DNA of 64,000 nucleotides, taken from NCBI GenBank assembly GCA_014860745.1, contig JACZJC010000035.1, positions 10,354-74,353 of the forward strand, written 5' to 3'. A model generated the notes under the pieces. The model saw only the letters and a list, made by a program, of their open reading frames with translations, was not told the DNA's origin and did no database searches. Below are positions 14,797-60,035 of the stretch, one piece after another. Position 1 is the stretch's first letter. Each line of letters starts with the position of its first letter. Position numbers and translations under genes: made by a program. The stretch is from Anaerolineales bacterium. Lineage in GTDB: Bacteria > Chloroflexota > Anaerolineae > Anaerolineales > Villigracilaceae.

Positions 14797-15525
14797 TCAG
14801 ACATCATAACCCATGCGGGATAAATATGGAGAAAGCATCTCTTTTAATGCGTGTTTTTTCTCCTCGTTGTAAAAATCGCGGAAGCGGCCAATCTTGCCTT
14901 TGTAAAAATGGAGACCCTGCTGGGCATCCGAAACGCCTGGGCGATACTGCTCGATCACCTTCTGGACCTCGAACCTGCTCCCGTCCAATTTGAGATGGTT
15001 CACCAGCCGGGCGGATTCCTCTTCGTAATTCGTCAGCAGGTCTTCGTAGCGAGCCACCAGCACATTCTTCTCGTTCATCCACTTCTCCCAAATGCGGACG
15101 TATTCCATCATGAACTCAACACTTTTTTCGAAATCGGAAATGTGTGAGAAGGCGTTGGGACGCCCCTTCACCAGCGCACGCTGGCCAAAGTCATAGGCCG
15201 AGAGCATGGCGTCGCGCGGGTCGCGGTAAATGTATGTGATGCGGAGCAGGCCAAGGGTTAGGAGGAGGCGCGAGGCAGATGTTGGCGCGGCATGAGCTTT
15301 GATCACGAAGGTGTTCCCAAGCAGGGCAGGCAGGGCCACCATCCCCAACCTGCGGGCGGAGAGGACGCCGATATTGCAATTGACTTCGGTGAGTATTTTT
15401 TGCAGGCGGTATTTCTCGCGGATGTCACGCGCATCGACACAGCCTGTGGTTTTCATGAGATCATGGATGAGGTTGTAATGCCAGCCCGAACCCGCGCGCG
15501 GCATACCCACGGAAAGAACGATCAT
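14797..15525 (-). CDS. PAPS-dependent sulfotransferase domain protein
   Basis: 5'-PSB GMPRAGSGW, 3'-PB YIYRDPRDA, RYEDL. Confidence 0.8.
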   Translation of the reverse strand: MIVLSVGMPRAGSGWHYNLIHDLMKTTGCVDARDIREKYRLQKILTEVNCNIGVLSARRLGMVALPALLGNTFVIKAHAAPTSASRLLLTLGLLRITYIYRDPRDAMLSAYDFGQRALVKGRPNAFSHISDFEKSVEFMMEYVRIWEKWMNEKNVLVARYEDLLTNYEEESARLVNHLKLDGSRFEVQKVIEQYRPGVSDAQQGLHFYKGKIGRFRDFYNEEKKHALKEMLSPYLSRMGYDV

Positions 15526-16982
15526 TTGATTTCCTTATGCGATGAAATAGCAGACAGCCCAACCAGTATGCCCGAAACCAGCCAGATATTTGGCGTGGTG
15601 AGCGAATCCTGGGTGAAATTATAAAAGGTGATCCCCAGCCACGCAAATACTCCGGCAGTGGCGGCAAAACGCGCCCAGGTTTCCCCGCGCAGCAAGAGCG
15701 AAAGCGAATCGCCAAGCACAAAAAATTGAAACGCGATGAATAATATCAGACCGAACAAGCCCGTTTCAGCCAGCAGGCGAATGTAGATATTTTTGGGGTT
15801 GGGATACAAACGGTTTTGCGGATTCAATTGTTTCGCAATTTCAGGCACGGTGGTCAACGACCAGTCGGGCAGGTTTTGGTACATGTAAAAGCCGCTCGCT
15901 CCGAGGCCGACTCCGCTGAGCGGATATTCCTCGAAGGCTGCAAGTGCCGCAGTGGAATAGGCGCCCCGCGCGCCCGCGTTGATATCCACCATGTATTCGC
16001 TCAGGTTTTCCGCTTCGATCTGCCACAAACGGCTAAAAAGGCCTTTTTGATTCAGGAAAAGAAATGAACCCGCCAGAGCGCCAACGACTGCGAGAATCAC
16101 ACCCGCACGAAAAAGTCTATCGAAAATTCGCCCGCGAAAGCCGTTGATAAACCAGGTCCACATTGTGCGGGTGACATCCCGCCCAAGAAATAGAAATGTC
16201 AATCCCGCCGCAGCAGCGATGGTCAATATGCCGCCGCGCGAATAGGTGGCTAAAAGCACCAGGAGAGATAATGCCAGCAGGACAGGTTCCAGCCATTTCA
16301 GGCGGGAGACGCGGTAATTCGTCAAAACGGAAGCAAATAAAAACGGGATGAAGATCGTGGCGAGCTGCCCCGCCAGCCAGGCTGGTTCATAGGCCAGGCC
16401 AGAGATGCGGTTTGTACGCACCAGTTCGCGCACCGAAAATGCCAACTGCCAGTGCGTCACCATTTCTTTTTCGAGCAAGCCCGTATAAAACGTGACAGCC
16501 TGCAAACCGCTCCAGGCGATGTCCAAACATAAGCCTGCCAAAATCCATTTGACGGTGAATCGCAAATCGGATTCGTCCCGGTTCATCCATACCGCGCTGA
16601 CGAAGGATGCAAGCCCGATGAGGAGGGTCGCCAATGCGCGGATCGCGCGCCCGAAATATTCCTGCCCGCGCAGGGGAATCGGGTCGATCAGCGCGCCGAA
16701 ACTGGTTGCAAAAACTACAAAGAGGACGAACGCCCCAAGCGCCACGAACGCACGCGCCCAATATAATTTTATTTTTTTACGAAATGCCTGAATTATTAAT
16801 AATGGCAATAACAAGGCCAGGGGATACAAAGCGAGCGGACGGACAAGAGTGCTTTCCCCAAGAAATGGGAACCAGCGAAAGCTGGTGACTGGCAAGGCGA
16901 GCATGGCCGCAGCCCAAAGAATGCGGGGGAGGCTTTGTGGGTCTCTCACCACAGAGAACACAAAGGGCATGGAGTTTTTCAT
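15522..16982 (-). CDS. O-antigen ligase/polymerase family (Wzy_C) membrane protein
   Basis: Polytopic; GLAYEP, TYSRGG, GVGLG and NIYIRLLAETG motifs. Confidence 0.75.
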   Translation of the reverse strand: MKNSMPFVFSVVRDPQSLPRILWAAAMLALPVTSFRWFPFLGESTLVRPLALYPLALLLPLLIIQAFRKKIKLYWARAFVALGAFVLFVVFATSFGALIDPIPLRGQEYFGRAIRALATLLIGLASFVSAVWMNRDESDLRFTVKWILAGLCLDIAWSGLQAVTFYTGLLEKEMVTHWQLAFSVRELVRTNRISGLAYEPAWLAGQLATIFIPFLFASVLTNYRVSRLKWLEPVLLALSLLVLLATYSRGGILTIAAAAGLTFLFLGRDVTRTMWTWFINGFRGRIFDRLFRAGVILAVVGALAGSFLFLNQKGLFSRLWQIEAENLSEYMVDINAGARGAYSTAALAAFEEYPLSGVGLGASGFYMYQNLPDWSLTTVPEIAKQLNPQNRLYPNPKNIYIRLLAETGLFGLILFIAFQFFVLGDSLSLLLRGETWARFAATAGVFAWLGITFYNFTQDSLTTPNIWLVSGILVGLSAISSHKEIK

Positions 16983-17599
16983 TTGTAATTCGTTTTTGGT
17001 TTTACAAACAACACAACAAACACGGACAGCATAAGAAAACCTGTGGAGCCTGCGAGCAAATATCCGCTTAATGGCACACTGCGCGCGGTGGGAAGTTTTC
17101 CAGATTGGGTGACTTCGAGTTTTATGAATTCATTGATATTCCCCGAATCGATTTCCGCTTTCACGCGCTGGACAAATGCCTCCGCCCAGGCGGAGGCTAG
17201 CGATGCGGCGACCTGCGGATCGTTATCATCGGCGTAGAAATGCCAGCCTGCTTCAGCGGGCTGGCTGAGTTGCAATTTCCCATCGCGTAAAACCTCGACC
17301 GGGACAGAAAAATCGGAAGATAATTGGCTCATAATTTCATCGTGCCAGGCAAGCTCTTCCAGTTTGCGGGATTCGCGCTCGAGATAATAGAACTGCTGGC
17401 GGTCAGTGTCCTGCGGCCAGGCCTGTTCAAGGTTGAAATCCACATTGACAGTGGCACGCGCCCGATGCGGCGGCGGAGCGATGAAATAAGCCGCGGCGCC
17501 AAGCAACGCGCCGAGCAATGCGCCAAGCACCCAAAACCGCCATGCTCGCAGCAAGCGGATGAAGTCTTCGAGGGAGGGAGTGGAAAGAATGAAATTCAT
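16979..17599 (-). CDS. Wzz-like chain-length determinant / polysaccharide co-polymerase-like protein
   Basis: Two terminal TM helices flanking a soluble loop; N-terminal pattern L.D..RLL..WR.W; next to the ligase gene. Confidence 0.5.
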   Translation of the reverse strand: MNFILSTPSLEDFIRLLRAWRFWVLGALLGALLGAAAYFIAPPPHRARATVNVDFNLEQAWPQDTDRQQFYYLERESRKLEELAWHDEIMSQLSSDFSVPVEVLRDGKLQLSQPAEAGWHFYADDNDPQVAASLASAWAEAFVQRVKAEIDSGNINEFIKLEVTQSGKLPTARSVPLSGYLLAGSTGFLMLSVFVVLFVKPKTNYK

Positions 17600-17632
17600 G
17601 GTTAGGGTACTTGGTAAATTACGAATTACCAA

Positions 17633-18400
17633 TTATGCATTCCTTTTTATGCGCCACTTCCAGAGCGGGCCGATGATTTTTCTAAGATAGTATTTTGCCA
17701 CAATCAGGGAGAAAAAAACACCGCCGTCACGATAATGCACGCGCAGCATTTCATCCCAGCCGCGCACATCGGCCAGATTGGTTTTGCTCGCGGTGTGGAT
17801 GCGAAAATTCGACCACACCCTGCCCGACAAATATTGGATGGGCGCGCGCGCTGCAATGCGAGTCCACAAGTCGTAATCCATTGCGAAATAGAAAGCTGGG
17901 TCGAGCGGACCCAGCTCCCGCCAATACTTCGCGCGGAAGAACATCGTCTGCTGGGGGATGTGGACGTAGCCCTCGCGCAGACGGCGATAATCGGTCTGCG
18001 CCGATTTGAATTTGCCGATGATCTCATCATTTTCATCGATGAAATTACAGTCGGCATACACCATGGCCGCATCTGGATTTTCAACAAGATATTTCACAGC
18101 TTCATTCACTGCGCCGGGATTGTAGGTGTCGTCGGAATTGATCCATGCGAGGATCTCTCCTTTTGCGCGATCGAATCCCTTGTTGATCGCATCGGTCTGA
18201 CCCTTGTCCTGTTCGCTGACCCACCAGGCGAGTCTACCCTCATATTTTTTGATGATATCCACACTGCCATCGGTCGAGCCGCCATCCACGATGATGTATT
18301 CGATGTTCGGGTACTCCTGCCCGAGCACGGATCGGATTGTCCGTTCAAGGAATTGAGCTTGATTAAAGGATGGGGTAACGATGGAGACGAGGGGGGGCAT
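17633..18400 (-). CDS. Glycosyltransferase family 2
   Basis: [24 protein letters not shown] motifs. Confidence 0.9.
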
Positions 18401-18427: not shown

Positions 18428-19348
18428 TTACCATTCACTGTCGGAGTAGAAAAGATGCGAAACCGATTCGGTGATCTTGCGGATGCGGCTTACCTCTTGT
18501 GGAGTGAGAATCTGTTTCCAATTATCGAGGCTGGCGCGACTGTCCAGTTTTACGGAATAGGTTTTGTTCCTGGCAAGTTTGGCGGGATTCTCCGAACTGC
18601 TCGAGTTGAGGATTATGTTTTTGACTCTTTCGTCGAAATCCAGGCCAAGGGATTCGTACAAGGTTTTGAAACCGGGCAGCGGGTTCAGGGAGAGGTCTTC
18701 GTGGCGGACGATGTTGAAGTCCGGGAACAATTCCCGGGCGTCATGAACGAAGCGGTGAATCAGCCGCCAGAGCAAGGCCGCCTGGCTGACAACATCCCCG
18801 GAGCGGGTCGATTCCATTTCGGCGCGGTCTTCTTCCAGATGATCGCGCATGAGCAGGGGCTGGTTGAGCAGGTTGTTGAAATCAAAAGGCCAGTTCAAGC
18901 GTTTGAGGCTGCTGACCACCGCGGCGGGATGGCGGATGGAAACGACCACCCGGCAATCCAATTTTTTGGCAAACCAGGGAGCCGAGAAAACCGCGAAGGG
19001 GTCTTTGAGCAGGGCACGCTGGCCGCGCATGGAGCCATTGAAGAAAATGCGAAAATCGCGGCCCATGCGCAGGAAATCCTTGAACGAGCGGACGGATTTT
19101 ATTTCCAGCCAGGTATGGTATTGGAAATCGAGCAGTTCATGAAATGCGGGCAGGTACTCCGATTCGTTTTCGGCGTTGATGTAGGTGTACCAGTATTTAA
19201 CCGGGGCGCGGAACACGCCGGGGCGGTGCAGCACATTCAACGGCTCGCTGACATAGGCGGTATCGGCATCGGCGGCAAGCATTTTGCCGACCCAGGTTGT
19301 GCCGCTGCGGTGCGTACCTGTGACGAGGATGGGACGGAGATTATTCAC
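18428..19348 (-). CDS. Sulfotransferase family protein
   Basis: GTHRSGTTW, LLKDP, RHPAAVVSS, RHEDL. Confidence 0.85.
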   Translation of the reverse strand: MNNLRPILVTGTHRSGTTWVGKMLAADADTAYVSEPLNVLHRPGVFRAPVKYWYTYINAENESEYLPAFHELLDFQYHTWLEIKSVRSFKDFLRMGRDFRIFFNGSMRGQRALLKDPFAVFSAPWFAKKLDCRVVVSIRHPAAVVSSLKRLNWPFDFNNLLNQPLLMRDHLEEDRAEMESTRSGDVVSQAALLWRLIHRFVHDARELFPDFNIVRHEDLSLNPLPGFKTLYESLGLDFDERVKNIILNSSSSENPAKLARNKTYSVKLDSRASLDNWKQILTPQEVSRIRKITESVSHLFYSDSEW

Positions 19349-20822
19349 TCAAGTATTCCAATATATCTTCTTCGAATATGGTGCGGGCGCGGATCGATTC
19401 GACGCCGTAATAATTTGCCGCGCAAACATTCACCCAATGTTCGGGGTTGTTATCGATTTCCTTCACATGGAACACGCCCGAAAAACTGGGAATGACAACC
19501 TCTTTTTCAGCGAGGGCGGCGTGGCGCAAAATATACGCGTTGCGCAGATCCCACAACTCGGCGCGGTGACGATACTCGGAGGCGTTGGCGCTGTACATGT
19601 TCACAGCCGCCCGCAGGGGATAGATGACGGCCAGCGCGGCGAGAAGCACAGCAACAACCCACTGCCAAAGCGCTGGGTTCGTTTTGAACCGAAGGCGGCT
19701 TAATGATAATCCAAATAATGCGCCTTCCAGCATGGCGGCAGCGATGATAAGCGTGCGCGCGAGGAAACGCATCCGTTCGACGGGGAATCCCTGCCCATAG
19801 ACGCTGGGCGAAAAACCAGCCGCGATCAACAGCCAGACCAAAATCGGGAGGAGCAGGACGGCAAAGGGCATCGCTCGTTTTTGACTTTGAGTTAATTCCA
19901 GGGAATTTTCCTGGCGGTGAAGCCAGACCAATAGCAAAGGAATCAGCATGGAGAGGATGGTCGGAAGCGGAAGAGTCCGCAAGGTATCGACGATAAAGAG
20001 ATAGCTGAAGAAAAACGAATTCCCCAGCAGGGTAAAAATATTCAAGGTCTTTTCCTGGGCCACGGTTGCGCTGGCAGGCGAGAGGAGCATGACGACCAGG
20101 CCAAGCAGCGCGCCCGCAAGGGATGCCCCCAGCAAGGCAAGGTATTTTTGTTTGAAAGAAGGTCCTGCAAATAACCAGGCGGCAAGTATCAGCAAAGGCA
20201 GGGCGGTGAGCATGGTGGCTGTGGGCGGTTCGGAAAAACCCGCAATGACAAAGGTTGCGAAAAAGAGGAAGAGATATGTGAACCAGGATGGCGAGCTGGT
20301 TTCGGAGAGCCGCGCCTGCCGCATAAAAAATGCAAAGAGGAAGGAGCCAAATACCAATGGCGCAAAATGGGTCATCATGGACGAGCGCCAGAAAACGGTC
20401 TGAAATAAGTTGGGGGCTTCCAGCATGCTGAAAAAACCAAGCGCCAGACCGAGGAACAAGTCGGTTTGAAAGGACCAGTTAATTTTGAGAAACTTCCGAA
20501 ATTCGCGCGCGCCCCAAACGAGACCGCCAAACCAGAGCACGATCATGCCGGTGATGGTGACCTGCAAATTATTTTCGCCAAGCCGCTCGCTAAAGCCGAC
20601 AAAGAGAATGTTCGAGTAGCGGTTGGCGGAACGCCAGGTGCCCACGGAGTAACGCTCGATCACGGCATTGAAAGGCGAAGAGCTATTGACGCGCACCGCC
20701 TCGCAGTAATCATCCGCAACATAGCGGGAGAACGACCCGAGGTAGGCGATCACAGCAAAATAAGCCAGGGGACCGATAATACTAATTAAAACAGCGAGGT
20801 TCAGCGGTTTTTTCAGATTCAT
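19341..20822 (-). CDS. Polytopic membrane protein, DUF6056/GT-C-like
   Basis: Many TM helices; acidic ADDYC motif after the first TM. Confidence 0.55.
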   Translation of the reverse strand: MNLKKPLNLAVLISIIGPLAYFAVIAYLGSFSRYVADDYCEAVRVNSSSPFNAVIERYSVGTWRSANRYSNILFVGFSERLGENNLQVTITGMIVLWFGGLVWGAREFRKFLKINWSFQTDLFLGLALGFFSMLEAPNLFQTVFWRSSMMTHFAPLVFGSFLFAFFMRQARLSETSSPSWFTYLFLFFATFVIAGFSEPPTATMLTALPLLILAAWLFAGPSFKQKYLALLGASLAGALLGLVVMLLSPASATVAQEKTLNIFTLLGNSFFFSYLFIVDTLRTLPLPTILSMLIPLLLVWLHRQENSLELTQSQKRAMPFAVLLLPILVWLLIAAGFSPSVYGQGFPVERMRFLARTLIIAAAMLEGALFGLSLSRLRFKTNPALWQWVVAVLLAALAVIYPLRAAVNMYSANASEYRHRAELWDLRNAYILRHAALAEKEVVIPSFSGVFHVKEIDNNPEHWVNVCAANYYGVESIRARTIFEEDILEYLSE

Positions 20823-22634: not shown

Positions 22635-22663
22635 TTGACCCTCCCTATGCGAGTGCGTATAAT
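22635..22663 (+). promoter_or_regulatory. Near-consensus sigma70 promoter driving the cassette array (Pc-like)
   Basis: TTGACC (22635-40) - 17 bp - TATAAT (22658-63), about 70 bp upstream of the first GTT core site. Confidence 0.8.
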
Positions 22664-22666
22664 TTG

Positions 22667-22741
22667 CTTATGCGATTTTAAGCTATTGCCGCCATCCATA
22701 AGCACTTATACGGAATGCGGCACTCTAATCCCGTGTTAGCC
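22667..22741 (+). other. attI-like recombination site
   Basis: CTCTAATCCCGTG|TTAGCC aligns with attI1 CCCTAAAACAAAG|TTRRRY, with CTAA at the same distance from G|TT; upstream direct repeats cttatgcg (22667) and cttatacg (22705). Confidence 0.6.
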
Positions 22742-22798
22742 CGTTTCGTTGAACAGATTCATCTCTGCAAACATTAACTCATATGGGAGATAAGTAAA

Positions 22799-23236: not shown

Positions 23237-23259
23237 ATGTTTCCACCAAATCATGAACG

Positions 23260-23375: not shown

Positions 23376-23410
23376 TGTTCCTTGCATAAATATCTAAAAA
23401 AGGGAAAACG

Positions 23411-24385: not shown

Positions 24386-24393
24386 AAAACACA

Positions 24394-24553: not shown

Positions 24554-24603
24554 AACCCGTCTTGATATAATAATACTCATCAAATTGAATGGTAGGAAAT
24601 GCA

Positions 24604-52503: not shown

Positions 52504-52512
52504 ATGGATCAC

Positions 52513-52632
52513 ATGTCATTGCGAGCGATCTTCGCGAAGCAATCTCCAGTTTGACGAACAAACATCATCGAAGGATTTTTTAGCGTTTCTTGGATATTGC
52601 TTCGTCGCAACAAACGCTCCCCGCAAAGGCAT
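52513..52632. repeat. GTCATTGCGAG family palindrome, copy 3 (degenerate)
   Basis: atgtcattgcgag..gaagcaatc..atattgcttcg..ccgcaaaggcat. Confidence 0.7.
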
Positions 52633-53486
52633 TACCAATTATTATTGTTTTCATAACCAAGTTTAATTAATAAATCGCCAGCCACATCCTTGAACAACTT
52701 CTTATGGTCATCGGTGAAATGTTCCTTCCACCCGCCTGTTTTCCCCGAGCGGAAGGTTCGACTTTTCCTCGGCTGAATGGCCTCTGCCAAAACAGATAAT
52801 GCCTTTTCGCGGGGAGTTGGGATTTTGTAGCCGGTCTTTTCCACTTTATCGAGCATGGCAAGCAGGGTTGCATCGCGGTTGTTGATGAGGTCCTCGAAGC
52901 GCAGGCACATCACGTCCTTTTGTTCCAGCCATTGGAAGACGCCTTCGTATCTTTGCTTCACGCTGACCATCTTCAAACCGTCTTTGTCTATGCCAGTGAT
53001 GGCAACATTCAAGCGCGCGCCAAAATCAGGCAGGGAGTTGTAATAGGCGTGCATGCCGTGCTCTTCGTGCATATCGGTCGCGAAGAATACCTGCGAGGCG
53101 AGCATATCTCTCGGGTCACGGTAAATAAAATAGTTGACGCGCCCAGCCGAGGTTAAGAAAGAGGCGTTCTCCTTTGTCGCATCCACATAGCCCCAGCCAA
53201 TGACTCCGTTTGGCACGCGCTTCAAGTCATCGAGTATTTCTTCTTTCGTCTTTCTTCTTCCATTTTTTTCAATCGTCCGAATCGGGTCGCCATCGACATA
53301 ACGATAGGGCATGATTCCGGTGAAGCCGTTGAGAATTTGCAGTAAAAGATGCGAGCCGCTCTTGGGCTTGGAATTGCCGAAGATGGGCGGCGCTTCATCG
53401 AAGGAAAACCGCTTCCAGCGTAAAATGGCTTGGGCGGTTTTGCCTGCGGGGCGCAACGTGCGGCGGAGTTTTTGGGTAATATCCAT
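52632..53486 (-). CDS. Sulfotransferase domain protein (paralog of 47044-47892)
   Basis: SKPKSGSHLL, YRDPRD, RFEDL, FRSGKTGGW. Confidence 0.88.
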   Translation of the reverse strand: MDITQKLRRTLRPAGKTAQAILRWKRFSFDEAPPIFGNSKPKSGSHLLLQILNGFTGIMPYRYVDGDPIRTIEKNGRRKTKEEILDDLKRVPNGVIGWGYVDATKENASFLTSAGRVNYFIYRDPRDMLASQVFFATDMHEEHGMHAYYNSLPDFGARLNVAITGIDKDGLKMVSVKQRYEGVFQWLEQKDVMCLRFEDLINNRDATLLAMLDKVEKTGYKIPTPREKALSVLAEAIQPRKSRTFRSGKTGGWKEHFTDDHKKLFKDVAGDLLIKLGYENNNNW

Positions 53487-53558: not shown

Positions 53559-54440
53559 TTATTCGTTCACCACGCGGCGGAGTTTTTTCATCGAACCTTT
53601 TTCGGATTCGTATACTTTTTTCACGCCATCGCCAAGCGCAGCTTCGGTGACGCGGATGTATTTCACGAGTCTTTCAAATCCACCAGGCTCCACAGAGGCC
53701 GCCTGGTCGCTGCCCCACATGGCGCGGTCGAGTGTGATGTGACGTTCGATGGATGTGGCGCCAAGCGCAATGGCAACCGCAGACGGTACGAGCCCAACCT
53801 CGTGACCCGAATAACCGATCGGATTGTCTGGAAATTCTTTGCGAAGTGTTTCGATCATTTTGAGGTTCAACTCTTCAGGCTCACACGGATAGGTGCTGGT
53901 GCAATGCATGATGACAAGGTTCTTCCCGCCGACGGCATTCACGCCCTTGTGAATTTGCTGCATGGTGGACATGCCTGTAGATATGATGACCGGCTTGCCT
54001 GTTTTGCGAACGTACTTCAACAGGTTATGGTCCGTCAGCGATGCCGAAGGGACTTTGTATGCGGGCGTATCGAATTTCTCCATGAAATCCACGGAAGGCT
54101 CATCCCAAACGGAAACCATCCAATCGATTTTTCTCTCCTTACAATATCGGTCGATCTCGCGGTATTGTTGCTCGTTGAATTCAACCTTATGGCGATAATC
54201 CAAATAGGTAATATAACCCCAGGGCGTTTCGCGCATTTGTTTTTGCTGTTCGAGCGGAGTGGAAACTTCAGGCGTGCGCTTTTGGAATTTCACTGCATCC
54301 GCGCCTGCGTGCACTGCCGCATCGATGATTTTCTTCGCAGTCTCAAGATCGCCGTTATGGTTGATGCCGATCTCCGCGATCACATAGGCGGGATGGCCGT
54401 CGCCCATCATTCGCTTTCCAAATTTTATCTCTCGAGCCAT
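53559..54440 (-). CDS. neuB: N-acetylneuraminate/nonulosonate synthase, short form without C-terminal SAF domain
   Basis: IAEIGINHNG, AVKFQKR, K.PS, ISTGMS, MHCTSTYP, GYSGHE, IERHITLD. Confidence 0.88.
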   Translation of the reverse strand: MAREIKFGKRMMGDGHPAYVIAEIGINHNGDLETAKKIIDAAVHAGADAVKFQKRTPEVSTPLEQQKQMRETPWGYITYLDYRHKVEFNEQQYREIDRYCKERKIDWMVSVWDEPSVDFMEKFDTPAYKVPSASLTDHNLLKYVRKTGKPVIISTGMSTMQQIHKGVNAVGGKNLVIMHCTSTYPCEPEELNLKMIETLRKEFPDNPIGYSGHEVGLVPSAVAIALGATSIERHITLDRAMWGSDQAASVEPGGFERLVKYIRVTEAALGDGVKKVYESEKGSMKKLRRVVNE

Positions 54441-54506: not shown

Positions 54507-55730
54507 CTACGCAGAAAGATTTTTCAACACTATTTCGCACAATTCACGGATCGCTCCATGACCGCCTGTTTTCGTCAACACAAAATCCGCCGCGCGGATA
54601 ACCTCGGGATAGGCATCCGCCACCGCCACAGACCAGCCCGCGATCTCAAAACAGGGCAGGTCGTTGAGGTCATTGCCAATATAAACGACGGTCTCCGCTT
54701 TGACATTTTTCTGCTCGAGGACTTCGCGCATCACCCTGCCTTTGTCCTGCATGCCAATCCCATGCATTGCCTCCACCCCCATCTTTTTCGCGCGCGCCAT
54801 CACAACAGGATTCGGCTCCGAGGAGAGAATCATCACCTCGATGCCTTTCTCGCGCAGGGTTTTGATGTGCATGCTGTCACTGCGTGAAGCGGAGACGGTT
54901 TCCTTGCCGTTCTCATCGGTCAGCACAAGATTATTTGTCACCACGCCGTCGAAATCGCAGATGATCATTTTGATGGCCTCGGGCATGGGGCGGCGGGGAT
55001 TCCCCGGCGAGACCATTTCCAAGCCGCTGTAGACCAGCGCTTCGTACTTCGCCCAATCGGCGAGGGTGTCGATATCCACCGTGTACTTCGGGTCGATCAC
55101 CAGCGGATAGATGACATTGCCGGTCAATGAATTTTTCCGCGTGATGGTGGAAACGCGAATCGCATCGATATGACCCGTCTGCCAGTAGACAGGCGGCAGA
55201 ATCTGGCGCGGCGCGTTATATGGTTCTGGAAGCCCTTCAACCTCAAGCAATGGGTTTAATGGTTTTCCTTCTCCGTTGAAGCGCCACATTTTGAAGGGGT
55301 TTTGCCCGGCAGGCACAACGCCGCGCACACAATCGGCGTCATCGTGGTTTAGAAGTATTCGAATCGCATCATCCACCATCGTCTTCGGGCGGATGGGAGA
55401 GGTGGGCCGTAATTGCACCACAACCTCGGGGTGGTAGCCTTCCATGTCTTCGAGCCATTTAAGAGCGTGTTCAAAGACAGGCAGGTCGGTTGTATGATCC
55501 TGTGCAAGTTCGGAAGGCCGCAGGAAGGGAGTCTCTGCTCCCCATTCTTGAGCAACCGTCATAATCTCCTCATCATCCGTCGAGACAATTATCCGCGTCA
55601 CCAGGCTGGATCGTTTCGCCGCGGCGATGCTCCATGCGATGAGCGGATAACCCGCGAAACTGCGGATATTCTTGTGCGGTATTCCTTTCGAGCCGCCTCG
55701 AGCAGGGATGAGTGCAAGGATTTCAGTCAT
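54507..55730 (-). CDS. neuA: CMP-nonulosonate synthetase fused to a KdsC-like HAD phosphatase
   Basis: IPARGGSKGIP.KN, STDD, LRPTSP, DIDT; C-terminal CDFDGV and GNDLND HAD motifs. Confidence 0.85.
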   Translation of the reverse strand: MTEILALIPARGGSKGIPHKNIRSFAGYPLIAWSIAAAKRSSLVTRIIVSTDDEEIMTVAQEWGAETPFLRPSELAQDHTTDLPVFEHALKWLEDMEGYHPEVVVQLRPTSPIRPKTMVDDAIRILLNHDDADCVRGVVPAGQNPFKMWRFNGEGKPLNPLLEVEGLPEPYNAPRQILPPVYWQTGHIDAIRVSTITRKNSLTGNVIYPLVIDPKYTVDIDTLADWAKYEALVYSGLEMVSPGNPRRPMPEAIKMIICDFDGVVTNNLVLTDENGKETVSASRSDSMHIKTLREKGIEVMILSSEPNPVVMARAKKMGVEAMHGIGMQDKGRVMREVLEQKNVKAETVVYIGNDLNDLPCFEIAGWSVAVADAYPEVIRAADFVLTKTGGHGAIRELCEIVLKNLSA

Positions 55731-55790: not shown

Positions 55791-56618
55791 CTACCACGCC
55801 GTCCACCCTCCATCCACAATGACATTATTGCCGGTCATGTAGGAGGATGCGTCGGAGGCGAGGAAGAGCAGGGCTCCGTTCATCTCGTCTTTTTTCGCCA
55901 TACGTCCGAGGATGGTCTTGGCGGAATAATTTTTAACGAAATATTCTTCGTGGTTGTTGAAGACACCGCCGGGTGTGAGCGCGTTCACACGGATCTCCGT
56001 CCCGGCATAATAAGCGGCCAGATATTTGGTAAAACCCATCACGCCGGCTTTGGTCACCGTGTAATAAACGGGTTTGTAGGCCACACGTTTGCCGTCTTTG
56101 ATATAGATCTTCTGGTCGGGGCCGTTCAGCCCATAGGTGGAACAGATGTTGATGATGCTGCCTTTTTTGCCCTGCTCGATCATTTGTTTGACGCAGGCCT
56201 GCGTGGTGAGGAACATCCCGGTCAGGTTGACGTTTAGCGCGGCGTTCCAGTCGCTGAGCGGATAATCTTCGAAAGCGCCGGGGGCGATTCCTTTTGCGGC
56301 GGCATCGGGGTCAAATTTTGGGTCGAGGGCGGCTGAATTGACGAGAATGTCGAGGCGGCCAAACTGCTTGACGGTTTCAGCGGCCAGTTCGCGGGTCGAT
56401 TCGAGGCGGGTGACATCGAGGGGAAAAGCAAGCGCTGAATAACCGAAGTCAGTGAGACGAGAGGCTGTCTTCGAGGCAAGTTCCATATTCAGGTCGGCGG
56501 CAACCACAGCCGCACCGGCTTCGGCGAGCGATTTGCAAAATTCGAATCCCAACTGTCCGCCCCCGCCGGTGACAACGGCAACGCGGTCTTTTAGATTGAA
56601 CTTATCAAGAACGGTCAT
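55791..56618 (-). CDS. SDR family oxidoreductase
   Basis: TGGGGQLG, VNSAA, YTVTKAG (YxxxK), NALTPGG. Confidence 0.9.
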   Translation of the reverse strand: MTVLDKFNLKDRVAVVTGGGGQLGFEFCKSLAEAGAAVVAADLNMELASKTASRLTDFGYSALAFPLDVTRLESTRELAAETVKQFGRLDILVNSAALDPKFDPDAAAKGIAPGAFEDYPLSDWNAALNVNLTGMFLTTQACVKQMIEQGKKGSIINICSTYGLNGPDQKIYIKDGKRVAYKPVYYTVTKAGVMGFTKYLAAYYAGTEIRVNALTPGGVFNNHEEYFVKNYSAKTILGRMAKKDEMNGALLFLASDASSYMTGNNVIVDGGWTAW

Positions 56619-56630: not shown

Positions 56631-58190
56631 CTACGGAAAGGCTGTGTAGATTTTATCGCCGCGCGTATCATGAGCAAGATAGAGGCCGTCGGCGAGTTGA
56701 ATATAAATGGATTGGACATCTTCAGACTCGGAGCCGAATTTGAATAAGGCAAGGACAGCGTTTCCCGAAAGGACATCCTGTTTGAGGGCAGCAACGCCCT
56801 CTTCGTATCCTCCACGCTGTAGGCCGGTGACGGGATCCACGAGGTCTGGAAGCACATAGCCGGGACGGTCAGTATAGAGGTAAACGGGGCCAGATTGATT
56901 GCTGTAAATTCGAGTACCTTCGGGAAGCGCGCGCAAAAACGCCATGGCTTCAGAATCGAACCATACAAATGATGCATATCCCTGCCCGCCCTTGCGGAGC
57001 TGGGCAACGGCGAGGGACATATCATAAACGGAAAGCGCAATAACGGATATTGTGATGCCCGCCGCCAACCCCCGCCAGAGAACGGCGCGTTTCTGCCAAA
57101 GCCAAAAAATAAACAAGACGAGCAGGATCAGTAACGAAACGTAGATGGGTGAATTGATGCGCGGCTTGAATTTGGTGCTGGCATCGAACAAGAGCATGGA
57201 AGAAATAATGGAGGCAAAGTAACCGAAAATATATAACGCGCTCGTAAAGGACAGGATCTCCGGCGTTTCGAAAGAAGGTTGAAGGAATTTCTTCAAGCCT
57301 TTGCGGGCAACCCAAATAAGCAAAACCAGCGCAATGGCAGAAAGAATAATGAGGAATAGATTTGGGACTTTGATCAACATCCGCCGCCACGCCTCAACCG
57401 GGACGAGAAATTCGGAAAAATTATAAATTCCGATCTGAATGTTCTCCGCGGTGAGCGGATGATAGACCAGCGTGCGGTTGGTGGCATTATCCGCTGCAAG
57501 TTTGTTGCGGACTGCCCAGGCAGCGATCCACGGCAAGGCGGAGGCGATGAATATCAGCGAGCGGGACAGGCGGGAACGCCATGTTTCGCGCAATAGAATC
57601 AAAGCGACAAGAAATGTAGCAAGCAGGGCCAGCCCTGCATAGCGGGTGAGGTAGGCCATACCCACGAAACAGCCGGTGAGGATCAGCCAGCGTTTACTTT
57701 GGCTTTTAAAGTAATAATCAAAAAGAAGAAATGAAACAAGGCTGAAAAAGATATAAAGCGGCTCGCTCATTGCCGCAGTGTGGATGCGAAACAGCGAAGC
57801 GTTAACTAAAAACAACAAAGCCAGCAGGATGCCGGCCAGCTTTGATTTGGTCATCCGCCAGCCAATGCAGCCGAGTAAAAATATGTTTGCGCCAAAAAGC
57901 AGGGAATTTACAAAGCGTGTTCCGCGTAATGGGTCCAGACCGCTGAAGCCGACGAGTGCAAGGAGTGACGAAAAAGCGGGCGGAAAGTGAGTGACGGGTT
58001 TGTTGGAAGCCAGCCAGATGGCGTGATAGCCATTTCCGTTCAAGAGGCTGCGCGCGCCGGCGATATAGGCGATCGAGTCATCGGAGAGGCCAAGGCCTTG
58101 AGGAGTTGCATCCAGGATGAGAAATGTCCCCAGTCCAGCGAGCAGGCCGAGGATCAAGATTGTGGCGAGAAGCGATTGGCGGGGGGTCAT
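56631..58190 (-). CDS. GT-C-like (ArnT/PMT family) membrane glycosyltransferase
   Basis: SDDSIAY first-loop motif, HFPP, MSEPL, LTRYAG. Confidence 0.7.
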   Translation of the reverse strand: MTPRQSLLATILILGLLAGLGTFLILDATPQGLGLSDDSIAYIAGARSLLNGNGYHAIWLASNKPVTHFPPAFSSLLALVGFSGLDPLRGTRFVNSLLFGANIFLLGCIGWRMTKSKLAGILLALLFLVNASLFRIHTAAMSEPLYIFFSLVSFLLFDYYFKSQSKRWLILTGCFVGMAYLTRYAGLALLATFLVALILLRETWRSRLSRSLIFIASALPWIAAWAVRNKLAADNATNRTLVYHPLTAENIQIGIYNFSEFLVPVEAWRRMLIKVPNLFLIILSAIALVLLIWVARKGLKKFLQPSFETPEILSFTSALYIFGYFASIISSMLLFDASTKFKPRINSPIYVSLLILLVLFIFWLWQKRAVLWRGLAAGITISVIALSVYDMSLAVAQLRKGGQGYASFVWFDSEAMAFLRALPEGTRIYSNQSGPVYLYTDRPGYVLPDLVDPVTGLQRGGYEEGVAALKQDVLSGNAVLALFKFGSESEDVQSIYIQLADGLYLAHDTRGDKIYTAFP

Positions 58191-58198
58191 AAGAAAAG

Positions 58199-58300
58199 TA
58201 TTGTCATTGTGAGCCGCGCACCTCATGGCAGGCGGCGAAGCAATCTCCTCTACTGTGCGGAGATTGCTTCGGTCGAATTTGCTCCCTCGCAATGACAATA
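58199..58300. repeat. GTCATTGCGAG family palindrome, copy 4
   Basis: tattgtcattgtgag...gaagcaatctcc..ggagattgcttc...ctcgcaatgacaata. Confidence 0.85.
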
Positions 58301-58307
58301 ATTCTAA

Positions 58308-60035
58308 CTAATTTACAGGTAAAAGATAGCCCTGCTCTTCGAGGAATTTCACGATGATGTGGGCGTTGTCTTCGGGAGAGGCTCCAAAGCCTTTGAGGGT
58401 GATCTCAGGGTTAATGGGGGGCTCGTAGGGATCATCCACGCCGGTGAAGCCCATGGGTTTCCCGTCCTGCATGGCCTGACGCGCCTTGGCATACAAGCCT
58501 TTCACGTCGCGTTGTTCACATACTTCAACAGGGGTATCCATGTAAATTTCGATGAAATTCTCACCGACCATCTTGCGAGCTTCAGCGCGTGTGGCACGAT
58601 AGGGACTGATGGCCGCGCAGACTGCCGCGCCGCCCGCATGGACAATTTCACCGGCCACAAAACCGATGCGGATGATGTTGGTATCGCGGTCTTCCTTGCT
58701 AAAGCCAAGACCTTTGGAAAGATGCGTGCGGACAACGTCACCATCAAGGATGGCGGTTTCACGTCCGCGCTCGAGGAGTAGGGTGGTGAGCACCTGTGTA
58801 GTGGCCGATTTGCCGGAGCCGCTCAGGCCGGTGAACCAGATGCAAAATCCCTGCTTGTGGCGCGGCGGATACATCTCGCGTAAAATTTCGGCTGTCTCGG
58901 GGCGGGTGAACCATTCGGGGAGAAGCCTGCCCTTGGCAAGATATTCATCGCGGACCTGTGTACCGGAGATATTGGCGGTCTTCGCGCCCTTTGGAACATC
59001 CTTCTCTTCCACATAACGGTCTTCATCGGGAAGATAGACAAGCATCTCGAACGGAACCATCTTGACGCCGATCTCGGCTTCGTACTGCTTCATGATCTCC
59101 TGCGCATCATACGGACCGTAGAACGGCTTGCCCGTGGAATCATTTCCCGGCCCTGCGTGATCCCGGCCGACAACAAAATGATTCGCGCCATGGTTGCGGC
59201 GGATGATGGCATGAAGCACAGCTTCCTTGGGGCCAGCCATGCGCATGGCCAGCGGCAGCAGGCTGAGCATGGTGTTTTTCTTGTCGTAGTAGTTATCGAC
59301 CAATGCTTTGTAAGTACGGACGCGCGTGTAATGATCGACATCACCAGGCTTGGTCATACCCACCACAGGATGAACAATGAGCGAGCCTTTCACCTCGGCG
59401 GCGGCGCGTTTTGTCAATTCTTCATGAATGCGATGGAGTGGGTTGCGGGTCTGGAAAGCAACCACATTGTCATGCCCCATTTCTTCGAGCCTTGCGCGCA
59501 CCTGAGCAGGCGTGAAGCGCAGGTTTACGAAATCATAATACTTGGGCAGGTTCACAACCTTCATTGGCCCTGAAATGCAGACCTTGCCCCAGCGTCCCAT
59601 TTCGGAAACCATGGGGTGTTTTGAATCGGTGGAGCCGTACGCAAGCGTGGCTTCGGTATCGGCGTCCCAATGATAGACCTCTTCGAGAGTCATCACAGCG
59701 ATCAGTTCAAAATTCGCATTGCGCAGCGCCAGCTCCTCGCCGACGGTCGGCAGTTCCTTCGGGTCAGCCGTCAGGGTGATGGGAAGTGGGAAGAGGGTCC
59801 CATCCGCAAGGCGCATTTCTTTCAGCACCCGCTCGTAGTCTGCTTTGCCCATGAATGTCTTCAGGGGCGAAAAACCACCGGTAGCGATCAATTCCAGGTC
59901 GCACAGGTTGCGCATGGTGATCTTAATGGCGGGTAGTTGCCCGGCGCGCGCCAGTAATTCTTCGCGTTCCTTGCCTTCCACAACCAGATTCACCAGCTTT
60001 CCACCGTAGGGTGGGATCAATTTTGCTTTTGCCAT
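58308..60035 (-). CDS. sat: Bifunctional sulfate adenylyltransferase / adenylylsulfate kinase (PAPS synthase)
   Basis: AFQTRNPLHRIH, VGRDHAGPG, then APS kinase WFTGLSGSGKS, LDGDVVR, DVKGLY; GGAG SD before ATG 60035. Confidence 0.95.
   Translation of the reverse strand: MAKAKLIPPYGGKLVNLVVEGKEREELLARAGQLPAIKITMRNLCDLELIATGGFSPLKTFMGKADYERVLKEMRLADGTLFPLPITLTADPKELPTVGEELALRNANFELIAVMTLEEVYHWDADTEATLAYGSTDSKHPMVSEMGRWGKVCISGPMKVVNLPKYYDFVNLRFTPAQVRARLEEMGHDNVVAFQTRNPLHRIHEELTKRAAAEVKGSLIVHPVVGMTKPGDVDHYTRVRTYKALVDNYYDKKNTMLSLLPLAMRMAGPKEAVLHAIIRRNHGANHFVVGRDHAGPGNDSTGKPFYGPYDAQEIMKQYEAEIGVKMVPFEMLVYLPDEDRYVEEKDVPKGAKTANISGTQVRDEYLAKGRLLPEWFTRPETAEILREMYPPRHKQGFCIWFTGLSGSGKSATTQVLTTLLLERGRETAILDGDVVRTHLSKGLGFSKEDRDTNIIRIGFVAGEIVHAGGAAVCAAISPYRATRAEARKMVGENFIEIYMDTPVEVCEQRDVKGLYAKARQAMQDGKPMGFTGVDDPYEPPINPEITLKGFGASPEDNAHIIVKFLEEQGYLLPVN

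Follow-up and report, generated by a model that had tools for sequence, protein, structure and literature searches.

Known bacterial gene clusters for sulfated capsules combine PAPS genes, sulfotransferases and kpsSC (PMC11766843). Nonulosonate routes that begin with phosphorylated sugars require a phosphatase step, which is not needed in the classical bacterial NeuB pathways (PMC6200933). Granular-sludge EPS contains both KDN and sulfated glycoconjugates, the producers of which are not known (PMC10483923). Here we describe a locus of a Villigracilis-like Anaerolineales bacterium (Chloroflexota) of bioreactor origin in which genes for sulfation and for nonulosonate (NulO) synthesis are interleaved; we found no paper describing this locus in the literature. 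Judged from its gene content, it is fairly likely to be a lineage-conserved cell-envelope glycoconjugate locus, the glycan of which would bear sulfate esters as well as a KDN/Neu-type nonulosonic acid.

Organization and conservation of the locus

Gene families were assigned with Pfam and NCBIfam profiles to the ~60 open reading frames of the window, the entire 64-kb stretch of DNA that was analysed (Table 1). The PAPS synthase, four sulfotransferases, NeuB, NeuA-HAD, KpsS-like and GT2 genes of the preliminary description were all recovered at or next to the positions it had assigned, and its end coordinate, 60035, is exactly the ATG with which the PAPS synthase gene starts. The nearest relatives are Anaerolineales metagenome-assembled genomes, Ca. 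Villigracilis among them, which supports the proposed identity of the host as a filament type of Chloroflexota.

The genes from 63916 to 50854 lie on one strand with gaps of at most ~130 nt. The 45 kb region is not a single unbroken operon, as the other strand carries a low-GC island, the GT87 gene and an acyltransferase gene paired with one for a PAS-GGDEF protein. The GC content of the island is 0.41-0.48 versus 0.52-0.55 for its flanks, and its open reading frames are trailed by repeated intergenic modules of roughly 100-150 nt. In contrast, Ca. V. saccharophilus has a single opposite-strand PMT_2 gene at this position. No flippase, initiating transferase, exporter or LCP ligase was found within the window.

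Table 1 Features of the locus in order of position.
Feature	Position	Strand	Basis and remarks
Sulfotransferase ST1	14797..15525	-	PF00685, 43.8 bits; left end of locus
Wzy_C-family membrane protein (polymerase, ligase or O-oligosaccharyltransferase type)	15522..16982	-	PF04932, 57.1 bits (cut-off 31.7)
Two-TM protein, possible chain-length regulator (Wzz-like)	16979..17632	-	PF02706, below cut-off
GT2 glycosyltransferase GT2a	17633..18400	-	PF00535, 107.6 bits
Sulfotransferase ST2 (Sulfotransfer_3 type)	18428..19348	-	PF13469, 53.6 bits
GT-C, DUF6056/GT_STM0557_N family	19341..20822	-	PF19528, 65.6 bits
GT-C (PMT_2)	20889..22463	-	PF13231, 42.3 bits
Low-GC cassette island	22635..29632	+	Interrupts locus, ~7 kb; outside glycan machinery
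GT2 glycosyltransferase GT2b	29640..30668	-	PF00535, 113.7 bits
GT-C (PMT/PMT_2)	30673..32220	-	PF02366, 45.1 bits; MptE-PMT-GT2 order conserved
MptE-like/DUF115 protein, candidate second CMP-sugar-acid transferase	32232..33050	-	PF01973, 48.6 bits (cut-off 34.6)
Small 4-TM membrane protein	33052..33423	-	GtrA-like by topology only; no family match
SDR oxidoreductase (SDR1)	33420..34175	-	PF13561, 189.9 bits
GT-C (PMT_2)	34720..36300	-	PF13231, 41.2 bits; 8 TM segments
D-2-hydroxyacid dehydrogenase (2HADH; PGDH/glyoxylate-reductase-like)	36293..37255	-	PF02826, 211.7 bits
GT87-like GT-C	37440..38639	+	PF09594, 45.6 bits; absent from compact V. saccharophilus locus
Membrane protein with weak sulfatase/alkaline-phosphatase-fold domain	40153..41688	-	LtaS/EptA-like architecture
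GT-C with C-terminal domain (g41852)	41852..43915	-	No Pfam match; 8 TM segments
Second CTP_transf_3 cytidylyltransferase (CTPt3)	43929..44591	-	PF02348, 99 bits
GNAT acetyltransferase	44688..45512	-	PF00583, 43.9 bits; conserved beside CTPt3
GT2 glycosyltransferase GT2c	46062..47036	-	PF00535, 88.3 bits; after ST3 in relatives
Sulfotransferase ST3 (ST4 paralogue)	47044..47925	-	PF00685, 41.9 bits
PlsC-type acyltransferase	50229..50816	+	PF01553, 52.9 bits; divergent from KpsS-like gene
KpsS/KpsC-like GT-B transferase, candidate CMP-sugar-acid transferase	50854..52512	-	PF05159, 30.5 bits (cut-off 20)
Sulfotransferase ST4	52632..53486	-	PF00685, 32.3 bits; between NeuB and KpsS-like gene
NeuB-family nonulosonate synthase	53559..54440	-	PF03102, 270 bits; without SAF/AFP domain
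CMP-nonulosonate synthetase + KdsC-type HAD phosphatase fusion (NeuA/HAD)	54507..55730	-	PF02348 plus PF08282
SDR oxidoreductase paired with CMP-synthetase	55791..56618	-	PF13561, 162.8 bits
GT-C (PMT/PMT_2-like), core member	56631..58298	-	PF02366, 34.2 bits; 8 TM segments
Bifunctional ATP sulfurylase/APS kinase (PAPS synthase, PAPSS; fused Sat/CysC)	58308..60035	-	NF004040; PF01747+PF01583+PF14306
GT-C with C-terminal domain (g60166)	60166..62202	-	Upstream of PAPSS; fold match
12-TM membrane protein (g62195)	62195..63916	-	No Pfam/NCBIfam match; first gene of co-directional run

The core order PAPSS–GT-C–SDR–NeuA/HAD–NeuB–sulfotransferase–KpsS-like is kept across about 55-65 related species genomes, counted over species-representative genomes and only for loci with enough flank. 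This conservation places the clustering far beyond chance, and it partly reflects shared descent because most relatives belong to one family-level clade. In Ca. V. saccharophilus the entire neighbourhood is collinear within about 31 kb. Core-adjacent sulfotransferase genes are limited to one well-supported 67-row clade, and PAPSS reaches further, into a sister clade of five rows. In the outgroups the NulO genes occur with neither PAPSS nor sulfotransferases, which makes sulfation a clade-specific add-on. The expression evidence consists of short metatranscriptome contigs from relatives.

Nonulosonate genes and candidate acid-sugar transferases

NeuB matches positions 2-278 of the 329-position TIGR03569 model and was found in 65 of 65 close relatives; its metal-binding His motifs are invariant (70-78 orthologues). 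The NeuA/HAD fusion scores 154 bits against PseF, 116 against KdsC and 91 against KDN-9-P phosphatase, all under the cut-offs, and matches PDB entry 3mmz with 135 bits. Its HAD motifs, DFDGV.T / S / K / GND.ND, do not vary among 78 orthologues. The paired SDR (best NCBIfam match PRK09186, 189 bits, under cut-off) adjoins NeuA/HAD in 71 of 72 loci, that of Thermanaerothrix included. None of NeuB, the two cytidylyltransferases and the HAD domain reaches its curated equivalog cut-off, so that the profiles give no sugar identity. The fusion of the CMP-synthetase to a KdsC-type phosphatase implies a 9-phosphorylated intermediate and hence a KDN/Neu-type acid, not Pse/Leg. Together with a NeuB that has no SAF domain and the lack of genes for amino sugars, this fusion points to a 9-phosphate route, and the sialic-acid-like sugar is probably of the KDN type. 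As amino-sugar genes are lacking, the simplest route would lead from Man-6-P to KDN.

The KpsS-like gene is kept in 37 of 40 relatives. Its product scores 36 bits against the BFO_1060 family, under the cut-off, and the AF2 model (pLDDT 84) has a GT-B fold for which KpsC gave the best target-normalised TM score, 0.46-0.54, among the matches listed. The AHPDE (HP motif) and NSTIGxEA sequences are invariant in orthologues; residues 120-137 form an in-frame palindromic insert. The gene previously called Maf/DUF115-like does belong to the DUF115/MptE family, but its product is a short protein of 272 aa and not a full Maf; it has weak PDB matches to the Cst-II sialyltransferase (E about 0.01).

CTPt3 (65.8 bits against PseF, under cut-off) is grouped with 2HADH, SDR1 and MptE in L080, L107 and L116, and in L117 these genes are fragmented; in L076 and L115 the group is present and MptE is not visible. 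CTPt3 is followed by 2HADH in relatives, which also conserve the order 2HADH-SDR1-MptE. 2HADH lies under the cut-off for all NCBIfam equivalogs. Given the GNAT gene, the acid may also be N-acetylated. V. saccharophilus has an 84-aa open reading frame at the position of the small 4-TM gene, an acyltransferase gene in the same position as the PlsC-type one, and an orthologue of the sulfatase-fold membrane protein (PF00884, E=7e-5, 22.7 bits, under cut-off) that adjoins CTPt3.

Sulfation genes

The PAPS synthase scores 826 bits against NF004040 (cut-off 669) and is present in every close relative with sufficient flank (55/55). All four sulfotransferases score over the Pfam cut-offs, and none has a TM segment. 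ST1, ST3 and ST4 carry PKSGS/T-type, RDPRD...S and RSGKxGxWK-type PAPS motifs; those of ST2 are HRSGTTW and RHP...SS. ST4 was found in 55 of 57 relatives and ST3 in 37 of 44 with enough flank; ST3 adjoins GT2c in every long locus. ST2 has orthologues at 60-76 % identity in L084-L096 and V. saccharophilus. Those of ST1 (74-85 %) occur in L084, L085, L087 and L094; at this position in V. saccharophilus no sulfotransferase was called, and there is a 143-aa open reading frame without a Pfam match.

Glycosyltransferases and membrane enzymes

GT-C membrane transferases, about ten in number, are the commonest enzyme class; six were assigned by Pfam, g60166 by fold, g41852 by homology (43 % identical to g60166) and g62195 by its 12-TM topology only. 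The core GT-C is present in 58/59 relatives, and g62195 has orthologues in 6. The GT-C at 20889..22463 is conserved in metagenome contigs with the left module (ST1-WzyC-Wzz-GT2a-ST2-GT-Cs). The AF2 model of g60166 (pLDDT 79) has GT-C proteins as its top PDB fold matches (STT3, ArnT, PglB and Pmt4), with E down to 1.5e-5 and TM scores of about 0.3. D46 D47 W48 and N428 F429 Q432 are invariant, and W430 and W431 nearly so (NFWWQ).

The proposed ligase/Wzz pair stood in its Wzy_C half. The Wzz half fell short of the PF02706 cut-off (E=0.0027, 18.4 bits versus 25.5), although TM segments at 33-54 and 188-212 fit the co-polymerase two-TM topology; the V. saccharophilus orthologue also gives a faint Wzz match. 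A glycosaminoglycan- or mucin-like polymer, as once envisaged, is not borne out: no UDP-sugar dehydrogenase, glycosaminoglycan synthase or amino-sugar pathway was found among the ~60 open reading frames scanned, uronate genes are absent, and GT-C transferases dominate instead.

Proposed pathway and alternative readings

The Sat/CysC fusion supplies PAPS, as its equivalog-level match shows. Domain architecture suggests that the SAF-less NeuB joins PEP to a hexose 6-phosphate, after which the fusion protein would strip the 9-phosphate with its KdsC-type domain and form the CMP-sugar with its N-terminal one; the paired SDR may alter the precursor or the product. The KpsS/C-like GT-B and short MptE/DUF115 enzymes are candidates for transferring CMP-activated acid sugars, one of which may derive from the second cassette of cytidylyltransferase, 2-hydroxyacid dehydrogenase and SDR. 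The GT2 enzymes would lengthen the glycan, and the four soluble, signal-less sulfotransferases presumably sulfate it during growth at the cytoplasmic side, PAPS being available there. Outside the membrane, the Wzy_C protein, the Wzz-like protein and the GT-C enzymes could subsequently polymerise the glycan, attach it or decorate it. Its final carrier, which may be a wall polymer, a protein or a lipid, is not encoded within the window. The interleaved and co-conserved sulfation and nonulosonate genes fit one glycoconjugate bearing both groups, as the preliminary description proposed; that both sit on the same molecule we infer, co-location being no proof.

Two or more products seem rather unlikely. 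The left module would then make a sulfated Wzy-type polymer and the right part a separate nonulosonate glycoconjugate, unsulfated or separately sulfated, the two being neighbours because envelope-glycan genes pile up. The modules are not always adjacent, since in the L094 metagenome contig no homologue of any window gene occurs within 10 kb upstream of the PMT2a orthologue; the compact L115 locus stops at a histidine kinase without the left module, and the 7-kb island separates the modules in the window. However, the NulO part itself contains ST4 and ST3, which ties at least this part to sulfation, and the modules lie side by side in collinear order in V. saccharophilus and are interleaved in L116, where ST2-GT2a come directly after GT2b (GT2b-ST2-GT2a). 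It is still less probable that the sulfation genes serve elsewhere, with Sat/CysC as the housekeeping enzyme of sulfate activation, the sulfotransferases acting on lipids or small molecules, e.g. sulfolipids, and the glycan unsulfated. PAPSS could also work in sulfur assimilation, the role assigned to sat/cysH/sir in these genomes, where genes for assimilatory sulfate reduction are reported to be widespread (PMC10746286); the locus includes a PlsC-type acyltransferase, neither NCBIfam nor PDB gave an acceptor-level sulfotransferase assignment, and in the clade L066-L073 PAPSS lies beside NeuA/HAD with neither NeuB nor a sulfotransferase nearby. Against this, the order in which the four sulfotransferase genes are interspersed among glycosyltransferase genes is conserved, and the known sulfated-capsule clusters are likewise built from PAPS genes, sulfotransferases and kpsSC (PMC11766843). 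Of seven distant ST4 homologues that were examined, four are found in glycan loci as neighbours of NeuB or cytidylyltransferase genes, and among these four only L111 has an independent architecture; the other three are not near NulO genes. One homologue (37-38 %) is directly upstream of a SAF-containing NeuB, with a CTP_transf_3 gene nearby, in an ABC-transporter locus of different organisation.

A protein glycosylation system in place of a free polysaccharide has perhaps the better claim to attention, though we regard it as doubtful. A lipid-linked, sulfated, NulO-capped oligosaccharide would be moved en bloc to an S-layer, sheath, pilin or lipoprotein target by Wzy_C (PglL-like) or the OST-like GT-C paralogues, and PMT-type GT-Cs would add more O-linked sugars. 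The g60166 model is significantly similar only to STT3, PglB, AglB, ArnT and Pmt4, with the invariant acidic pair D46 D47 in the first loop and NFWWQ just past the last TM helix; four genes match PMT/PMT_2, and flagellin NulO transferases are among the members of the MptE-like family. The locus also encodes a lipoprotein whose linker is Thr/Val/Pro-rich (38976-39989), but its gene is missing from the compact V. saccharophilus locus. The low TM scores of g60166 weigh on the other side, as do the activity of GT-C enzymes on lipids and polysaccharides too and the Wzz-like protein, which suggests polymer length control; no target protein was identified, and no flagellar genes were found in the window.

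A cell-envelope glycoconjugate carrying both sulfate and a nonulosonic acid is the reading we retain. The locus is a plausible candidate for the genetic origin of the slime, sulfated and bearing sialic acids, that chemical analysis has detected in wastewater sludge, and its PAPS genes, sulfotransferases and KpsS/C-like transferase follow the same logic as the sulfated-capsule clusters of other bacteria.

Conservation of the locus

The locus stands up as real, and its conservation is strong. The genes from 63916 down to 50854 run in one direction, no gap between them exceeding about 130 nt, and ORF listing together with family scans recovered every gene class named in the preliminary description (including NeuB, the NeuA-HAD fusion, the Capsule_synth-like protein and three GT2s), Wzz being the one weak assignment. 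Species-representative genomes contain 80 relatives of NeuA/HAD at 59-89% identity, whose titles are nearly all Anaerolineales/Chloroflexota, with two Bacteroidota. Among them are Ca. Villigracilis saccharophilus, affinis, vicinus and propinquus, CFX2, CFX6, OLB14 and the cultured Thermanaerothrix. Two bioreactor metagenomes contain the window DNA completely.

Among relatives with a NeuA/HAD at least 72% identical, and with loci of insufficient flank left out of the count, the neighbours of NeuA/HAD are retained as follows: the PAPS synthase (PAPSS) in 55/55, NeuB in 65/65, the SDR in 62/63, a GT-C gene termed PMTd in 58/59, the sulfotransferase ST4 in 55/57 and the KpsS-like gene in 37/40. 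On a 358-kb contig of Ca. V. saccharophilus the complete neighbourhood is collinear over ~31 kb, in the order PAPSS-GT-C-SDR-NeuA/HAD-NeuB-ST4-KpsS-like-(acyltransferase)-ST3-GT2-GNAT-cytidylyltransferase-sulfatase-fold protein-2HADH-SDR-MptE-GT-C-GT2-(one opposite-strand GT-C)-GT-C-DUF6056-ST2-GT2-Wzz-like-Wzy_C. Beyond this arrangement, the window carries ST1, a PAS-GGDEF gene, further GT-C genes, two small genes of selfish appearance and, on the plus strand, a low-GC island of 7 kb. In the related locus L116, GT2b is followed directly by ST2-GT2a, and L094 carries the left module (ST1, Wzy_C, Wzz-like, GT2a, ST2 and GT-C genes) with no right part nearby; adjacency of the left and right parts is therefore frequent, not obligatory.

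Metatranscriptome contigs from sludge and biofilm assemblies (X26, X27 and X29) contain only scattered 190-350-nt pieces of many locus genes at 95-99% identity, at most a weak indication that relatives transcribe them; X18 and X25, labelled METAGENOMIC, were left out as RNA evidence. Promoter and terminator sites in the window are no more numerous than in shuffled sequence, and an Rfam scan of it found nothing.

Features of the locus and its surroundings, in window positions
Position	Strand	Feature	Observations
5274-10479		Five tandem genes	Each with an N-terminal TM/signal segment and an N_BRCA1_IG Ig-like domain; array flanked by a Bmp-type ABC transporter and QueG/Ham1
14797		ST1, sulfotransferase	43.8 bits, over Pfam cut-off
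18428		ST2, sulfotransferase	53.6 bits, over Pfam cut-off
22489-22625		Tandem heptamer array	ATTGGAG-like units, between the PMT_2 gene start and the cassette island
22635-29632	+	Island	GC 0.41-0.48; small unrelated genes (zinc-ribbon, MUG113/T5orf172, HAD, DUF1295, SnoaL)
~23260-23390, 24387-24553, 25091-25257, 25922-26069, 27189-27340		Repeat modules	Related, 100-150 nt, one after each island gene
32232-33050	-	MptE-like/DUF115 protein	PF01973, 48.6 bits vs cut-off 34.6; 272 aa
34232-34660		PD-(D/E)XK_3 gene	Inserted between glycan genes
38976-39989		Predicted lipoprotein	Signal ending LAAC; Thr/Val/Pro-rich linker; no family match
41852-43915	-	g41852, GT-C paralogue	Top structural matches, shared with g60166: oligosaccharyltransferases STT3, PglB, AglB
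45554-46051		23S-rRNA-IVP four-helix-bundle gene	Inserted between glycan genes
47044		ST3, sulfotransferase	41.9 bits, over Pfam cut-off
48031-50181		PAS-PAS-GGDEF diguanylate cyclase	Opposite strand, in the interval from ST3 to the KpsS-like gene
50854-52512	-	KpsS-like protein	PF05159, 30.5 bits vs cut-off 20
52102-52155		Near-perfect palindrome, 54 nt	In frame; KpsS-like residues 120-137, a surface loop (model pLDDT below 50)
52632		ST4, sulfotransferase	32.3 bits, over Pfam cut-off
53559-54440	-	NeuB	PF03102 TIM-barrel domain, 270 bits
54507-55730	-	NeuA/HAD fusion	CTP_transf_3 + KdsC/C0-type HAD
55791-56618		SDR paired with NeuA/HAD	Top NCBIfam model PRK09186
58308-60035	-	PAPSS, Sat/CysC fusion	NF004040, 826 bits vs cut-off 669
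60166-62202	-	g60166, GT-C paralogue	As g41852; both with invariant NFWWQ just past the last TM helix, its position recalling the WWDxG motif

Sulfate activation and sulfotransferases

PAPSS is a full-length, equivalog-level match with PUA-like (PF14306), ATP-sulfurylase (PF01747) and APS-kinase (PF01583) domains, and its true ATG at 60035 coincides with the end coordinate first assigned to it. Sulfotransferases were defined by a PF00685/PF13469 score above the gathering cut-off together with the 5'-PSB (PKxGT/S) and 3'-PB (RDPRD..S) motifs. All four proposed from the sequence were confirmed, and the PAPS-binding motifs PKSGS/T, RDPRD..S and RSGKxGxWK could be read in the sulfotransferase sequences; those of ST4 are kept in 57 orthologues. 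None of the four has a TM segment or an NCBIfam match. PDB sequence matches, marginal for ST4, are weak, C-terminal only and to cytosolic SULTs, so that neither database assigns an acceptor class (glycan, lipid or small molecule).

ST4 has 3054 relatives at E ≤ 0.001 among 1.84 billion representative proteins, 86 of them at E ≤ 1e-30. Genomic context was inspected for seven distant relatives (26-42% identity), which bear on the idea that the family is invariably linked to nonulosonic acid (NulO) genes. One (P0273, 38%) lies directly upstream of a SAF-containing NeuB, with a cytidylyltransferase nearby, in a Wzm/Wzt ABC-transporter locus that has another gene organisation, and three (L115, L116 and L117) belong to diverged versions of the window's own glycan locus. 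The remaining 3/7 occur in glycan loci devoid of NulO genes, which rules out an invariable link; the association is recurrent, not universal. In L117 (ENA ERZ25039603 contig_14870), where the locus has diverged, a PIG-L::sulfotransferase fusion occupies the ST3 position, and NeuA/HAD, NeuB, 2HADH and MptE are in fragments, which probably represent long-read frameshift errors rather than decay.

The sugar-acid pathway

The GYSGHE and ERH motifs of the window NeuB are invariant and align with the metal-binding His motifs of N. meningitidis NeuB. With 293 aa, the protein corresponds to positions 2-278 of the 329 in TIGR03569 and is devoid of the C-terminal SAF/antifreeze-like domain; its close homologues, all among the matches listed, are likewise ~293 aa. 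It scores below the equivalog cut-offs of both NeuB (TIGR03569, 266 vs 399.65) and PseI (TIGR03586, 217 vs 340), and the matches listed comprise only relatives at least 87% identical; synthases of reference for KDN, Neu, Leg or Pse are not among them.

The CMP-synthetase-phosphatase domain order of NeuA/HAD is also that of vertebrate CMP-sialic acid synthetase. Across 78 orthologues the HAD motifs (DFDGV.T, S, K and GND.ND) do not vary, hence the domain is being selected for its enzyme function. It reaches 106.7 bits against TIGR01670 (cut-off 106.95), 91 against the KDN-9-P phosphatase model NF058599 (cut-off 180) and 116 against KdsC PRK09484 (cut-off 208). Its closest solved relative is 3mmz (135 bits), a Streptomyces protein.

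Which acid is made can be narrowed from this gene content. Precursors of Pse and Leg are 6-deoxy sugars, hence no 9-phosphate is possible. A Pse/Leg-type acid was rejected because such precursors are incompatible with the 9-phosphate implied by the fused phosphatase and because dehydratase and aminotransferase genes are missing; neither these nor a 2-epimerase gene occurs in the window or the V. saccharophilus locus. A phosphatase is required in pathways that set out from phosphorylated hexoses and dispensable in classical bacterial NeuB routes (PMC6200933). Given the phosphatase fusion, the rejection of Pse/Leg and the absence of the three gene types, the simplest reading would be a KDN route, Man-6-P -> KDN-9-P -> KDN -> CMP-KDN; the lack of amino-sugar genes at the locus speaks indirectly for Man-6-P as the putative substrate. 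The GNAT gene and the always-paired SDR would leave room for a modified acid. The top model for this SDR is of the 'flagellin modification protein A' type, which pairs with ptmB in Campylobacter.

Transferases and membrane enzymes

The KpsS-like protein matches KpsC in sequence at E=0.038 and scores 36 against the BFO_1060 family (cut-off 200). Its AlphaFold-type model (pLDDT 84) has a GT-B fold; among the matches listed KpsC gives the highest target-normalised TM (0.46-0.54), but E-values are better for generic GT-B epimerases. The orthologues keep AHPDE and NSTIGxEA without variation, a pattern that would fit the CMP-sugar-binding HP motif, and the protein is a reasonable candidate for a CMP-acid transferase. 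The loop that holds the palindrome spans 0 to ~22 residues among 24 orthologues and is therefore an insert hot spot. Metagenome contigs break exactly at both palindrome coordinates, 52102 and 52155.

Two assignments of the preliminary description stood in part. Its Maf/DUF115-like transferase has the MptE-like domain; a full-length Maf architecture is absent from the 272-aa protein, flagellar genes are absent among the window ORFs, and the PDB sequence search gave marginal matches only. In the ligase/Wzz pair, the Wzy/ligase-type membrane protein is secure (PF04932, 57.1 bits vs 31.7), whereas the Wzz-like protein is sub-threshold (18.4 vs 25.5 bits), though with the two-TM topology expected of Wzz. 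The three GT2 genes match NCBIfam models far under cut-off, and the Wzy_C protein, the Wzz-like protein and most GT-C proteins have no NCBIfam match. No scanned window ORF matches a Polysacc_synt/MurJ-type flippase, Bac_transf or Glycos_transf_4.

The abundance of GT-C membrane transferases had not been stressed before. Six have Pfam matches (four PMT/PMT_2, one DUF6056/GT_STM0557_N and one GT87). Two further paralogues, g41852 and g60166, are 43% identical and have no Pfam family. GT-C structures (STT3, PglB, ArnT and Pmt4-type) are all that the AlphaFold model of g60166 matches at E below 1e-3, and the acidic pair D46 D47 in the first external loop of this protein is invariant. The two proteins may represent an undescribed OST-like family. 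A 12-TM protein encoded at 62195-63916 has no family assignment.

Inserted and flanking genes

The island looks like an integrase-less cassette array, at the site of a single GT-C gene in V. saccharophilus. The PD-(D/E)XK_3 and IVP genes have the look of small mobile or selfish elements; only some relatives possess the IVP gene, at varying positions between ST3, GT2c and GNAT. At the site of the PAS-PAS-GGDEF gene, a homologue (53%) is found only in L005 among the loci fetched, and V. saccharophilus has an unassigned gene of 541 aa instead; the diguanylate cyclase may place the locus under strain-specific control by c-di-GMP. The compact V. saccharophilus locus lacks the lipoprotein gene, whose product could be a glycosylation substrate. 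The five N_BRCA1_IG-domain gene products may be surface proteins.

Origin of the sulfation module within the lineage

The NeuA/HAD tree divides in three. In a clade of 67 rows (support 99/92), sulfotransferase and NeuB adjacency holds wherever flanks suffice, and its sister clade has PAPSS-GT-C-SDR-NeuA/HAD only. The outgroup (Thermanaerothrix, within 10 kb, and the loci L076 and L080) has no PAPSS or sulfotransferase at the locus. L076 and L080 both carry SDR-NeuA/HAD-NeuB-KpsS-like-cytidylyltransferase-2HADH-SDR, L080 additionally with GT2c and MptE, which ties the second cassette (cytidylyltransferase, 2HADH, SDR1 and MptE) to the NeuB core. An outgroup with sugar-acid genes but neither PAPSS nor sulfotransferases marks the sulfation module as an add-on that was grafted onto an older sugar-acid system.

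Predicted product and significance

The polymer had been suggested to be glycosaminoglycan- or mucin-like. The ~60 window ORFs and the annotation of the V. saccharophilus locus include no UDP-sugar dehydrogenase, GAG-type synthase or amino-sugar pathway, and with uronate and GAG-synthase genes absent a GAG-like polymer was rejected, and the analogy finds no support. From its genes, the locus is best read as putative machinery for an envelope glycoconjugate bearing sulfate and a KDN-type nonulosonate. A narrower and rather unlikely proposal is that ST4 and ST3 form a bacterial sulfotransferase family acting on a nonulosonic acid or on a residue capped by one, so that Villigracilaceae, which rank with the most abundant filaments of activated sludge worldwide, would display O-sulfated KDN-type sugars. 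A further layer may be that the two OST-like GT-C paralogues, with their invariant NFWWQ motif, transfer this glycan en bloc to proteins. To our knowledge, sulfated sialic-acid-type sugars have been reported from animals only. If true, this proposal would name a producer and genes for the sludge-granule EPS described as 'sulfated and sialylated'.

The EPS of granular and activated sludge contains KDN and Pse/Leg as well as sulfated glycoconjugates, whose producers and sulfotransferase genes, according to the authors, could not be found (PMC10483923). Treatment plants around the world have Villigracilis-type Anaerolineales among their most abundant Chloroflexota (PMC10746286). In the literature that was searched, no paper connects Anaerolineales, Villigracilis included, with nonulosonic acids or glycan sulfation. 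The conserved PAPS/sulfotransferase and KDN-type locus is a concrete genetic candidate for this chemistry, and NeuB, the HAD-CMP synthetase, ST3/ST4 and the KpsS-like protein form an enzyme set for in vitro work. Outgroup relatives without the sulfation module offer a natural comparison that could reveal the contribution of sulfation, for example charge, sialidase resistance or floc cohesion.

Comparison with known systems

None of the Cobetia/Vibrio capsules, the Bacteroides/Prymnesium KDN route and teichulosonic acid combines the elements of the window locus. The Bacteroides thetaiotaomicron BT1713-BT1715 and Prymnesium parvum KDN route shares the NeuB-family synthase, the KdsC/C0-type HAD phosphatase and the CTP_transf_3 CMP-synthetase, and likewise needs no UDP-GlcNAc 2-epimerase or amino-sugar enzymes (PMC6200933). 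In contrast to that route, the window phosphatase is fused to the CMP-synthetase, NeuB is SAF-less and an SDR is an obligatory partner; the HAD domain, with its predicted substrate, stays below the cut-off for KDN-9-P phosphatase (91 vs 180 bits).

Transferases of the Maf/BFO_1060 type, known from flagellin and Tannerella S-layer glycosylation, share the MptE-like/DUF115 domain and a weak BFO_1060 match beside NeuB/NeuA. They differ in that the window MptE-like protein has 272 aa, the BFO_1060 score is 36 vs 200, a flagellin or S-layer gene is not nearby and the acid is unlikely to be Pse/Leg.

The sulfated capsules of Cobetia marina KMM 1449 and Vibrio sp. KMM 8419 share PAPS genes, polysaccharide sulfotransferases and KpsS/C-type ulosonic-acid transferases in one locus (PMC11766843, PMC11641403). 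Those clusters are for group 2/3 capsules of Gram-negative bacteria and include a KpsMT/ED ABC exporter, CysDN/CysC and CysQ, with Kdo as the lipid-linker primer (PMC11766843, PMC11641403), whereas the window has a Sat/CysC fusion, a NeuB-type pathway, Wzy_C with a Wzz-like protein, many GT-C proteins and no exporter. Streptomyces teichulosonic acid, for which sulfate is unreported, is a phosphate-free anionic wall glycopolymer (Kdn-Gal) of a filamentous Gram-positive (monoderm) bacterium (PMC11481543, PMC7831098) and would be a possible analogue of the predicted product; the window is without an LCP ligase.
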